From NCBI GenBank assembly GCA_963821525.1, contig CAWGED010000005.1:672001-736000 (forward strand): a stretch of 64,000 nt of DNA, written 5' to 3'. The notes beneath the pieces are model-generated. The model ran no database searches. It saw nothing but the letters and a program-made list of their open reading frames with translations, and was not told where the DNA came from. The number at the start of each line of letters is the position of its first letter. Position 1 is the first letter of the stretch. This document shows positions 28,478 through 32,610 of the stretch, piece by piece. A program made the translations under genes and the position numbers. The stretch comes from an uncultured Gemmatimonadales bacterium (GTDB taxonomy: Bacteria > Gemmatimonadota > Gemmatimonadetes > Gemmatimonadales > GWC2-71-9).

Positions 28478-28602
28478 TGGCCGAATGGCGGAATCAGATG
28501 AACTCGCGCCATTGAAGAGCGTGATCGCTGCTTCTCTAGTGCTCTGATCGTCCTACTAGCCTCGCCAATCTGCCATTCCGCAAATCTGCAATTCCCATTC
28601 CC
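28476..28602. repeat. degenerate inverted octamer array
   Basis: ATGGCCGA ATGGCGGA on the left; CTCGCCAA TCTGCCAT TCCGCAAA TCTGCAAT on the right. Confidence 0.55.
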
Positions 28603-29642
28603 TCTCCCAACGCCTCCCGCAGCACCCTCTCCACCCCATCCCACTCTGTAAGAAACGCGTCGTGTCCGTAGGGTGAGTTGATCTCCCGATAACGGGCGTC
28701 GACTCCAGCCGCGGCGTAGGCTGCGACCCACTGCTCCACTTCGGCGGGGTAGTAGAGGATGTCGGTATCGATGCCGACGCCAATCAGCCGGTTGACCCGA
28801 AGCCGTGTCTCTTCGGCGGCAACGCCTGTGTCTCCCACATCATGGAGATCCATGCTCCGCATCAGGCTGACATAGCTGGCAGCGTCGAATCGCGCGACCA
28901 GCTTGTCCCCCTGGCGCCGCAGGTAATACTCCGCATCGAACTGTCCTGCCCGGCGAGTCTGCCGGCGCCCGAAGCGGGTTTCGAACTCGATCGCGCTCCG
29001 GTAGGTGATCATCGCGATTGCCCGGGCGGCGGCGAGACCGGCCGCCGGCCCTTCGCCCGGCGGGTAACGCCCTCCCTGCCAGCGGGGATCGGCTTCGATG
29101 GCGAGCCGCTGCGCGGCATTCCACCCAATGGCCTGGGCCGAAGTCCTCGCAGGCGCGGCAAAGACCACGACACTCTCGGTAGGCACCGTGGCCAGCCTGG
29201 CCCACTGGAGCGCCACCATGCCGCCCAGCGAACCACCGGTGGCCAGGGCGAGCCGGGTGATGCCCAACTCCTCGAGCAACTGGCCGTGGGCCCGGGCGAG
29301 GTCCCCCGTGGTGAGATCCGGAAAATGTTCCGCGCTCGGATCTCCCGGAGCCGGACCACTCGAGCCGTAGCAGCCACCAAGCAGATTGGCCGCGAGTATC
29401 GGGCGTCGGGCAGGATCCAGCGGCTTGCCCGGCTCGAGAAGCGGCTCCCACCACTGGTGTACTTCATGGCTTCCGGTCAACGCGTGGAACACGAGCACCC
29501 AACCTCGCTCGGCTCCCAGCTCAGGATCGCCATAGGTGCGGTAGCGCAGCCTGGCCTGGCGAATGACTCCGCCACGTTCGGTTCGGAAATCTCCCAGCTG
29601 AAGATCGCGGACTGGCGCGACGGGGGCAGGGGAAAGCGTCAT
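28536..29642 (-). CDS. metX: homoserine O-acetyltransferase
   Basis: [24 protein letters not shown] nucleophile elbow, [24 protein letters not shown]; own RBS (GGAAGGAGC) before ATG 29642. Confidence 0.9.
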
Positions 29643-29691
29643 GCTCCTTCCGCCTTCCTCGACACGCCAGCCGCGGGACATCGTCCGGGCG

Positions 29692-30209
29692 TCACCGCGT
29701 GCTCCCCGCCGTTTCGGCGACATCACTTCCGAGAGTTGTCCGGTCTTCACGTCGTAGACGAATCCCCGGATCTCGGTATCGGGCGCAATGAGGGGACTCC
29801 TGCGCAGAAACTCGACGTCATCCCGGACGCTCTTGTGGAGGTCGGGGAAGGGGAGAAAGTCGATCCCACTCGCGTCCGAACCGAGGTCCTTCTCGACCTT
29901 CTTGTAAAGGTCGTCATTGGCGAAGGTGAGCATGCCGCACTCGGTGTGATGCACTACGGTGATCGCCGTGGTACCCAAGAGCCGCTGCGAGATCACAAGG
30001 GAGCGGATCGCATCCTGAGCTCTCCCGCCGGCATTCCGAATCACATGCGCATCACCTTCGGAGAGGCCGAACGCCGTGGCTGGGTCGAGCCTGGCATCCA
30101 TGCAGGTGACGATCGCGAGGTGCCGGGACGGGGGTAGGGGCAGCAGCACCGGGGCTCGCTCACCCGAGTAGCGCCGATTTTTCTTGAGGACTTCATCGAT
30201 CTCCGACAT
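29692..30209 (-). CDS. beta-class carbonic anhydrase, clade D (Rv1284/COS hydrolase-like)
   Basis: [46 protein letters not shown]. Runs in frame into metX in this sequence; a stop at 29692 would be reached by restoring one base. Confidence 0.88.
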
Positions 30210-30240
30210 GGCTAACCTCCCTGGAGCTCTCCGCTCCTTG

Positions 30241-31270
30241 TCAGGATGCCCGCCGTACGTCTCGGGCGAGTGTCGCGTTCAAAACGAAAATGGAGTGCAC
30301 GATTCTGGTCGCCTGGGCGCCAAACACCGCGGGCACGGTGACGCCTACCTGGCGCTCCTCAGGATCAACCTCGATGACTGGAATGCTCTCGGCCCGAAGG
30401 GCACGGTGGAGTGATTCAGTCACGCGGAGCGGGTCGTCCAATGGCGTACTGCTCACCGCCGTCAGCCGGATCATCACGCCATCGGTTGGACCGGTGGCCA
30501 CCGCGCGAACGCCCTCACGCGGCTGCGAGGACGGATATCCTCGTGAGTGGCCCCTCGCCATCGATGGCATGGAACTCGAGCGCTAACCCGCGCTGTTCTG
30601 CCAGTTGTGCCGCTTCCGGATGAATTACCCGGGACCCGGCGGCTGCCAGGGTAGTCAGGAAGGAATGTGGCGCTTCGCCGATGACTTGCCCTTCGGGGAC
30701 CAGCTTAGGATCCGCGGTGCGAAGACCGTGCGCGTCCTTCACGAATTCTGCGTGATCCGCCTCGAGCGCCACGGCGAGGGCCACCGCCGTGACATCGGTC
30801 GCTCCGCGGCCGAGCGTGACGACGCGTCCCCGATTCCATCCCTGGAACCCGGTCACGACCGGTACCGCGTCACGCTGCAGGAGCCGGGTGAGGCGGCGGG
30901 TTGCTACGGCGCCGATGTGAGCGTGCCCCGCGCGACCGACGGTTCGTAACCCTGCCTCACGCGCGTCGAGCGACACGCCTTGTACGCCGAGTTGCTGAAG
31001 CGCCAGGGCCAGCAGCGAGGCGGCGACTACCTCTCCCGCTGCAACCGCGCGATCCGCTTCCGAGACCGGCCCGCTGGTCCCGCCGGCGGCCGAGCGCACC
31101 TCGTCCACCAGCCCGAGCAGATGGTCGGTGACCCCCCGGCGCGCGCTGGCTACGGCCACGACCGGGCCTGCCGCGGCACGCAGCTGCACCCGTCGAGCCG
31201 CTGCTGCGATACGCTCGGGAGAGGCCAGCGCGTCTCCCCCGAGTTTCACGATCACCGGCCTGCGACTCAT
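30241..31270 (-). CDS. aspartate kinase, short form (one frameshift near 30525)
   Basis: [39 protein letters not shown]-like tail in ORF 30241..30570. Confidence 0.82.
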
Positions 31271-32610
31271 CCGGCGACTCCCGCGGCCTGCCGGGCACCC
31301 GGAGCGTCGGTGGCTGCCTCGCCGCCCAGCGCCTGATCGAGATCGGCGATGAGGTCGCGAACGTCCTCCAGGCCGACCGAGAGCCGGATCAGCTCCGGGG
31401 TGGTACCCGTCGCGATCTGCTGCTCCGGGGTGAGCTGCTCGTGAGTGGTGGACGCCGGATGGATGATGAGCGACTTGGCGTCTCCCACGTTGGCCAGGAG
31501 CGAGAACAACTTCACCTTGTCGATCACGGCCTTGGCTGCGGCATGCCCACCCTTCACTCCGAAGGTCAGGACTCCGCCGAACCCGCCGCTCAAGTAGCGC
31601 CGCGCGTTCCGATGCTCCGGATGACTCTCGAGGCCGGGGTACGAGACCCATTCCACCCTCGAGTCCTTGGCGAGCCAGCGGGCGACGGCCAGCGCGTTGT
31701 CCGAGTGGCGCTGGATCCTGAGCGGCAGTGTCTCGAGCCCCTGCAGGAAGAGGAACGCGTTGAAGGGCGACAGCGCGGGCCCGAGGTCGCGCAGCAGCTG
31801 GACCCGAAGCTTGAGGATGAAGGCGAGCGGGCCGAACGCCTCGGTGTAGACCAGTCCGTGATACGACGGGTCAGGCGTCGAGAACTCGGGGAAGCGCTTG
31901 CGAGCGGTCGGGCTGGCCCAGTCGAAGCTGCCGGCGTCCACCACCGCACCGCCGATCGCCGTGCCATGTCCGCCGATCCACTTGGTCGCCGAGTGGATGA
32001 TGATGTCGGCGCCATACTTGATCGGCCGGCTCAGGGTCGCCGCGCCGAAGGTGTTGTCCACCACGAGCGGGATTCCCGCCGCATGGGCGATTTCGGCCAG
32101 GGCGGCGAAGTCGGGGACGTCGAGCCGTGGATTGCCGATCGTCTCGACGAAGAGCAGCCTGGTGCCCTCGTCAATGGCCTGGCGTACCGCATCCAGGTTG
32201 TGGATGTCCACGAACTTCGTGGTGATGCCCCACTTGGGCAGAGTGTAGGCAAAGAGATTGTAGGTGCCCCCGTAGAGCGTCTGGGAGGACACCAGGTTGT
32301 CTCCGGCCCGGGCGAGGTTGAGGACAGTGAGCGCCTCCGCCGCCTGTCCGCTGGCCAGGCCGAGTGCTGCGACACCGCCCTCCAGCTCCGCCAACCGCTT
32401 CTCGAACACATCGGTCGTCGGGTTCATGATGCGGGTGTAGATGTTCCCGAATTCCTTGAGACCGAAGAGCGCCGCCGCGTGGGTGGTGTTGTTGAACACG
32501 TAGCTCGTGGTCGAATAGATCGGCACGGCACGGGCATTGGTGGCGGGGTCGGGTACCTGTCCCGCGTGAATCGCTAGGGTGTCTGGATGCAATGGCATTA
32601 TCGGCTCCAT
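31267..32610 (-). CDS. metY: O-acetylhomoserine sulfhydrylase (aminocarboxypropyltransferase)
   Basis: [39 protein letters not shown] lysine, [18 protein letters not shown]. Confidence 0.95.

Follow-up and report, generated by a model that had tools for sequence, protein, structure and literature searches.

A fungus is known to assimilate carbonyl sulfide (COS) through a beta-carbonic anhydrase (CA) of clade D, and growth of E. coli on COS improves about tenfold with a fungal COS hydrolase of this clade; prokaryotic cases are expected by the same authors (PMC10880591). The fungal enzymes are reported to have Km values of 300-634 uM and kcat values of 35-135 per s for COS, with nearly no CO2 activity (PMC12035519). 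COS uptake by soil interferes with photosynthesis estimates that rely on COS as a tracer and is ascribed to microbial CAs, clade D above all (PMC8209446, PMC6330096). With regard to regulation, SAM-II riboswitches that act by termination are known (PMC1273637, PMC9481103; the available part of PMC3326309 adds no further features), as are cysteine leaders, namely mycobacterial polycysteine short open reading frames (ORFs; 10.1101/834739), actinobacterial cys leaders (PMC1262725), and an upstream ORF of cysS in Rhodobacterales (PMC8632094). Here, a locus is described in which elements like these appear together. In a 64,000-nucleotide stretch of an uncultured Gemmatimonadales genome (contig CAWGED010000005.1, positions 672,001 to 736,000; the window), a clade D CA gene lies in an operon with metY, an aspartate kinase gene, and metX, behind a leader RNA predicted to respond to S-adenosylmethionine (SAM) and cysteine. 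The question addressed by this operon is the role of clade D CAs in heterotrophic bacteria.

A role of the CA in sulfur supply is likely, as indicated by its retention in the 14 operons, out of 23, that have no kinase gene, by a cysteine leader at four of eight CA loci that lack metY, and by two other beta-CAs in the genome. The specific model that we favor by a modest measure is that the enzyme would work as a sulfide-releasing hydrolase, converting COS and H2O to CO2 and H2S and thereby feeding MetY.

In agreement with the sequence-only reading, which had described co-oriented and closely packed genes, metY, aspartate kinase, CA, and metX follow each other in series on the minus strand, and their coordinates and domain matches concur (Table 1). 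The end of metY overlaps the start of the kinase gene, 31 bases separate the latter from the CA gene, and in congeners the CA stop codon is followed by metX after 49 bases. A terminator scan found no terminator-like site on the minus strand inside the four-gene block. RNA contigs of one metatranscriptome span parts of all four genes and of the leader, as separate contigs that do not prove a single transcript. The longest frame of metY begins at 32610; the start listed in Table 1 agrees with relatives. The window metX scores under every NCBIfam MetX cut-off. Close homologues carry the label Gemmatimonadales, and near-identical DNA occurs in soil and rhizosphere sequencing runs.

Table 1. Features of the metY-metX operon and its leader, in order of transcription (window coordinates).
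Feature	Position	Strand	Remarks
Predicted sigma-70-type promoter	32938..32966	-	-35 box 32966-32961, 17-nt spacer, -10 box 32943-32938; read from sequence
SAM-II-like riboswitch aptamer (predicted)	32863..32929	-	67 bases; extra variable hairpin between P1 and A-rich linker
Predicted intrinsic terminator 1 (aptamer expression platform)	32820..32852	-	GC-rich hairpin 32852-32829, then U-rich bases
Leader peptide	32692..32799	-	35 codons; 4 Cys and 4 Met codons within a 9-codon stretch
Predicted antiterminator strand	32735..32743	-	complements 5' arm of terminator 2; about 10 nt past last clustered Cys codon
Intrinsic terminator 2	32641..32671	-	14-pair hairpin and U tail; terminator scan; conserved
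metY, O-acetylhomoserine sulfhydrylase	31267..32598	-	TIGR01326, 662 bits against a cut-off of 495
Aspartate kinase, C-terminal regulatory-type segment	30241..31270	-	PF00696; frameshift near 30521
Beta-carbonic anhydrase, clade D (Cab-type), candidate COS hydrolase	29692..30209	-	PF00484; one-base deletion near 29721
metX, homoserine O-acyltransferase	28536..29642	-	nearest solved structures are homoserine O-acetyltransferases

Judged by its zinc site, its Cab-type residues, and fold matches to clade D structures, the window CA is a clade D (Cab-type) enzyme, as had been proposed earlier on account of two motifs, one of 21 protein letters and RGFVYDV, both of which were found. The zinc ligands C36, H88, and C91 and the D38-R40 pair are invariant in 24 of 24 aligned copies, copies with damaged motifs having been excluded from this alignment. 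The best match in both sequence and fold is CafC (6JQC; 186 bits, 53% identity), followed by the S. mutans enzyme (3LAS; 165 bits, 51%), Rv1284 (1YLK; 143 bits, 45%), the T. thioparus COS hydrolase (3VQJ; 111 bits, 36%), and the CS2 hydrolase (3TEN; 81 bits, 32%). The window CA is nearer to the first three than to the T. thioparus enzyme, ahead of which the G. antarctica enzyme also ranks among its best solved relatives. A structural model of the window CA (predicted local distance difference test score 84) yielded 6JQC, 3LAS, 5ZTP, 1YLK, and 3VQJ as leading Foldseek matches, with template-modeling scores of 0.83-0.86 against 6JQC, 3LAS, and 1YLK. At positions 25, 55, 73, and 78, the window CA has L, H, I, and L, the first three being Cab-type residues where plant-type enzymes have Gln, Phe, and Tyr, and the Trichoderma COS hydrolase has M, H, I, and L (PMC12035519); the gate residues L25 and L78 of CafC are retained. 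CafC is described as COSase-like with very low CO2 activity, and Rv1284 and a Bacillus enzyme are CO2-active members of clade D (PMC12035519). In a tree, the window CA lies far from the two further beta-CAs of the genome.

Upstream of metY lies a leader of two parts, an aptamer with a terminator and a Cys/Met peptide with a second terminator; the sequence-only reading had invoked a sulfur-responsive leader without defining it, and such a leader is present, its response being predicted. The promoter was missed by a consensus scan because its -10 box fits at only three of six positions, and a TTGAC-spacer-TAnnnT pattern is found ahead of the leader in most loci. The aptamer consists of P1, UUU, P2a, UUGC, and GCUAAA elements, identified in an alignment of 34 distinct sequences. 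All 340 cells of its P1/P2a/P2b core are paired, and one compensatory change (C-G to U-A) occurs in P2b; nine of the ten core pairs never vary, so that they say little about pairing. A hairpin fold is obtained for the inserted segment in all 29 parsed sequences. SAM-II riboswitches contact SAM through U10-U11-U12, U20-U21-G22, and U44-A45-A46 (PMC3303485), and the equivalent positions are invariant (34/34), equivalence having been judged by visual comparison with two ordinary SAM-II copies of the genome, since MAFFT did not bring the variant and ordinary copies into register.

These ordinary copies score above the Rfam cut-off (window genome G000, C19:989275-989348, L166, and C5:813288-813360, L167), so the genome holds both the ordinary and the hairpin-inserted form. 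One of them precedes a cystathionine gamma-synthase gene; the gene behind the other is presumably metH-like. RF00521 and RF01726 matched neither the locus in the window nor four related loci, even at E values of up to 5-10, and an RNA model derived from the variant failed to recover the two ordinary copies. Among 101 family genomes, this model matched in 16, once in each, before metY or, in G088, before aspartate kinase, and the motif is present in 39 of 44 metY leaders. The window aptamer is thus best described as a SAM-II-like variant, set apart from the Rfam members and predicted to bind SAM. A hairpin similar to terminator 1 stands behind the aptamer in relatives; the terminator scan did not list that of the window. 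The two leader parts also occur singly. The SAM-II-like motif lacks a leader peptide before the aspartate kinase gene of G088 (L273) and before metY of G329 (L160), and in genus g18 (L040, L091, L092, and L147) the metY leader has no SAM-II-like part, the Cys/Met peptide beginning a few bases after the -10 box in an apparently leaderless manner. At L041, L076, L144, L146, and L148 (genera g13 and g33), yajQ is separated from the leader by an additional small ORF, acidic and about 120 codons long.

The second part shares two features with a classical attenuator, clustered Cys and Met codons and an intrinsic terminator between the leader ORF and metY. A short ORF with at least two clustered Cys codons is present in 42 of 44 metY leaders. 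As a control, 1407 upstream regions of G000 were searched: 65 (4.6%) contain a short ORF with at least three Cys per 10 codons and eight contain one with at least four, and among these eight the window leader alone is then followed by a terminator-like pattern. (At C5:591929, a possible Cys ORF precedes a cysK-like gene; it sits in repeat-like DNA and was not counted.) The leader region folds with a z score of -5.4. In most leaders a strand complementary to the 5' arm of the terminator lies about 10-15 nt past the Cys cluster, where a classical attenuator would require it, and in 16 of 45 leaders the pairing beats 95% of shuffles; that of the window was equaled by 23 of 200 shuffles and is not significant alone.

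These features suggest a mechanism in which SAM, when bound, would allow terminator 1 to form, and in its absence transcription would continue. A ribosome stalled on the Cys/Met codons would then leave the antiterminator strand free to block terminator 2, so that the operon would be read only when SAM and charged Cys (or Met) tRNA were both low. The kinase and MetX would provide O-acylhomoserine, from which MetY and sulfide would produce homocysteine, leading to methionine and SAM and probably also, by reverse transsulfuration, to cysteine. The CA would be an optional supplier of the sulfide. The genome contains genes for homoserine dehydrogenase, CysD, CysK, a CBS-like protein, and a cystathionine-lyase-like protein, and CysE was found neither in it (G000, 81% complete) nor in the congener G001 (98% complete). 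With this gene content, homocysteine may be the route to cysteine, which would explain the cysteine control of metY. The earlier proposal that the sulfur serves methionine is probably too narrow: because the leader is predicted to sense cysteine in addition to SAM, methionine would not be the sole product, and both sulfur amino acids are likely supplied through the operon.

Conservation of the gene order was surveyed in 61 relatives and 401 genomes of the phylum, a close CA being defined by at least 55% identity. Besides that of the window, 33 genomes have a close CA, and in 23 of them the order metY-(kinase)-CA-metX is found, nine times with the kinase and 14 times without. The remaining 10 comprise two broken at contig ends, one with CA-metX only, five with the CA alone at the same site, flanked by yajQ and a sigma factor, and two with the CA elsewhere. 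Viewed from metY, orthologues of at least 78% identity occur in 43 of the 401 phylum genomes, with the CA adjacent in 20, at a contig end in one, elsewhere in two, and undetected in the other 20. Linkage of the close CA to met genes is conserved, and the CA is an old, optional member of the met locus. All operon genomes are related to one another, which makes the counts non-independent, and yet the recurrent gene order exceeds chance.

As the leader is kept at metY loci that lack the CA, it belongs to the locus and by itself is uninformative about the CA. More pertinent are eight CA loci without metY. None has the SAM-II-like aptamer (0/8), and in four a cysteine leader and terminator directly precede the CA (G411, G176, G331, and G369); the CA of G369 is at another locus and on a branch separate from the other three. 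Outside the phylum, 75 loci among the best 80 listed matches were inspected, with 99 of 156 neighbor frames scanned. A convincing Cys-rich short ORF just before the CA was found in three, with the Cys-ending ORFs at approximately L196:2490-2560 (Actinomycetota), L210:3866-3946 (Dormiibacterota), and L244:130-175 (Acidobacteriota). These ORFs are of a leaderless type and are followed by lone clade D CA genes; the leader shared by L196 and L210 is one we take to be of the actinobacterial type.

An immediate neighbor linked to sulfur was found at nine more of the 75 listed loci (SBP56, two; rhodanese/Suf, three; Cys/Met pyridoxal-phosphate enzyme, one; ThiF, two; sulfatase, one). In two Thermoleophilaceae (L171:4456 and L173:3874), a gene of the SBP56 family, presumably of the methanethiol oxidase type, lies 8-9 bases behind the clade D CA, and the pair is possibly a unit that wins sulfide from two volatile sulfur compounds. 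The order rhodanese, clade D CA, SufU/SufB occurs at L189, L190, and L232 (Thermomicrobium and two Actinomycetota). An inositol-monophosphatase neighbor in Rhodococcus loci, considered as CysQ, was dropped, since it adjoins a release-factor gene and is, we presume, probably a histidinol phosphatase.

Another possible role is bicarbonate supply: as an ordinary CO2 hydratase, the CA would support the synthesis of oxaloacetate and aspartate, from which homoserine takes its carbon skeleton. The CO2 activity of Rv1284 and of the Bacillus clade D enzyme (PMC12035519) and the aspartate kinase in nine of 23 operons would suit this role, whereas the CA is retained in the 14 kinase-free operons, the genome has its two other beta-CAs, cysteine leaders before lone CAs would make little sense, and the closest solved relative is very low in CO2 activity (PMC12035519). 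A bicarbonate function is considered quite improbable.

No sulfite-reductase domain was found in G000 or G001, and the host would accordingly need reduced sulfur; the sole PAPS-reductase-family match is CysD. A cluster of cysN-like, CysQ-like, and cysD genes (G000, C5:56016-60190), in which no reductase was found, apparently provides sulfate activation without reduction. No thiocyanate or nitrile hydratase alpha subunit was found in the genome, in a search that had no positive control.

Atmospheric COS, which the sequence-only reading had put forward as one possible sulfur source, probably does not hold up quantitatively. Air contains 500 pptv COS (PMC8209446), corresponding to about 9 pM dissolved COS as computed with a published solubility (PMC12035519). 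At fungal kinetics, an assumed 1,000-10,000 enzymes per cell would yield about 90-1,700 S atoms per day, compared with a diffusion limit of about 5 x 10^6 and a need of about 10^7 S atoms per day for a cell of assumed 50 fg with 1% sulfur. Air COS is probably insufficient for growth, and scavenging from air would require an enzyme that surpasses the fungal ones by a factor of about a thousand or more; COS present locally in the ppmv range would suffice. Useful COS would thus be local, arising in soil microsites or from the breakdown of sulfur compounds by neighbors, unless the enzyme far outperforms its fungal counterparts.

The same calculation lends some weight to another substrate, such as CS2, a thiocarbonate or thiocarbamate from organic sulfur breakdown, or recycled intracellular COS. 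The evidence from leader and neighborhood fits such a supply equally well, a CS2 hydrolase also belongs to clade D, and the fungal COS hydrolases are slow on CS2 (PMC12035519). The CS2 hydrolase is, however, a weaker match to the window CA than CafC (81 against 186 bits), and the operon has no gene that would produce a substrate of this kind; we regard this alternative as unlikely.

Several observations weigh against a COS-hydrolyzing, sulfur-supplying CA. At the protein level, CO2-active Rv1284 is 45% identical to the window CA, and sequence and tunnel residues are reported not to separate COS-specific from CO2-active clade D enzymes (PMC12035519). As clade D holds both kinds and the residues do not discriminate, the window protein permits rather than proves COS hydrolysis, a candidate activity that sequence cannot decide. 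At the level of supply, air COS falls about 10^4-fold short under the assumed enzyme number and cell size. Sulfite reductase occurs in five of 23 genomes with the CA and in seven of 20 without it (p = 0.5), and the idea that CA presence tracks loss of sulfite reductase across the family was abandoned for lack of association. In genomic context, the 22 more distant CA loci of the phylum all lie away from met genes, the 20 of 43 metY-orthologue genomes without a close CA still carry the leader, and some operon copies of the CA have damaged motifs (G011, G036, and G107). A cysteine leader is missing from four of the eight CA loci without metY (G168, G075, G195, and G299), and of the four that have one, G411, G176, and G331 form one clade and probably reflect a single event. 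In the outside loci, 63 of the 75 listed showed no sulfur link among the neighbor frames scanned, and the five Cys ORFs flagged there are near the 4.6% background, so that L196, L210, and L244 count by position and likeness, not by number.

Part of this pattern would be expected if the CA were a passenger, which entered the met locus in an ancestor, acquired the leader by position, and is now being lost. The 20 metY genomes in which it was not found, the damaged copies, the CAs of G168, G075, and G195, which remain at the locus but have no cysteine leader, and the kinship of every operon case are all in keeping with this. Such a gene would hardly be expected to persist where metY and metX, or the kinase, are gone, to be paired independently with a cysteine leader in G369 and in three other phyla, or to keep the same zinc ligands in every one of the 24 aligned copies (damaged-motif copies excluded). 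Passenger status is judged rather improbable, and sulfur supply by the CA continues to be the likely reading. A broader proposition is put forward tentatively: soil heterotrophs may run a native, regulated pathway from COS to homocysteine, in which a clade D hydrolase is coupled to MetY by an RNA gate with two inputs (a new SAM-II variant and a Cys/Met leader peptide), clade D CAs of different phyla may have come under cysteine-starvation control on several occasions, and part of the soil COS sink may be a sulfur-starvation response.

In the window assembly, the CA and metX genes form a single open frame of 557 residues. The CA of the congeners G001, G002, and G003 ends at about 173 residues, a database protein 99% identical to the window CA (P0006) stops at the same point, and contigs from two independent soil studies have one extra base at 29721/29722. 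The missing stop is probably a one-base assembly error, and a CA-MetX fusion acting as a true channeling enzyme was rejected for this locus on these grounds. A 622-residue frame in G010 was likewise discarded as a fusion, being merely an open stretch upstream of a CA that has its own stop. The kinase frame, broken at about 30521, is unbroken in G001 (342 residues), and one DNA contig and one RNA contig are one base shorter than the window at this point; again a one-base assembly error is probable, and two separate kinase genes were rejected in view of the intact G001 frame and the contigs without the extra base. Further apparent frameshifts at 23024-25586 and 26056 are consistent with an indel-prone assembly. 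They affect neighbor genes that we take to encode a 2'-5' RNA ligase-like protein, a sigma-54 regulator, and the start of an aldehyde dehydrogenase.

Beyond the locus itself, cysteine-controlled genes offer a way to select likely COS hydrolases where sequence fails, and cysteine control predicts that COS uptake will increase under sulfur shortage. The leader is of interest in its own right, as a SAM-II form missed by Rfam and stacked on a leader-peptide attenuator. In the openly available main texts, no paper was found on a native bacterial CA-metY operon (COS hydrolase with met or cys genes), nor on a tandem of SAM-II and leader peptide, a leader-peptide attenuator of metY, a sulfur-regulated CA, or a SAM-II riboswitch in Gemmatimonadota; the terms "leader peptide" and "attenuat" are absent from the main text of a review of tandem riboswitches (PMC9481103).

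In comparison with known systems, the leader resembles SAM-II riboswitches (RF00521 and RF01726) in P1 and pseudoknot, in the UUU, UUG, and UAA contacts, in a promoter just before P1, and in a terminator behind the aptamer with met genes downstream (PMC1273637, PMC3303485). It differs in the variable hairpin after P1, the lack of an Rfam match, and the leader-peptide attenuator behind it. Known cysteine leaders share the clustered Cys codons in a short ORF before sulfur genes, and that of cysS (PMC8632094) also has a terminator. The window peptide, in contrast, mixes Cys and Met near its start, is stacked behind a riboswitch, and has a beta-CA among its targets, and its leader contains an intrinsic terminator where the mycobacterial example acts at translation (10.1101/834739).

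As to the enzymes, we know of no met operon that contains CafC, the S. mutans protein 3LAS, or Rv1284. Since CO2 is converted by Rv1284 but hardly at all by CafC (PMC12035519), resemblance to them does not tell which substrate is used. The T. thioparus COS hydrolase (3VQJ) and the Acidianus CS2 hydrolase (3TEN) belong to the same clade and fold as the window CA but have longer chains with extra elements and feed sulfur oxidation for energy rather than amino-acid synthesis (PMC8209446 for T. thioparus). With the fungal COS hydrolases of Trichoderma harzianum and Gloeophyllum trabeum (PMC10880591, PMC12035519, PMC8209446), compared through their published residues only, the window CA shares its size, its zinc site, residues 55, 73, and 78, and the proposed role of releasing sulfide for assimilation. 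Unlike them, it is bacterial and lies in an operon with the consumer of the sulfide, and in place of the constitutive activity described for the Trichoderma strain, its expression is predicted to be gated by RNA switches.

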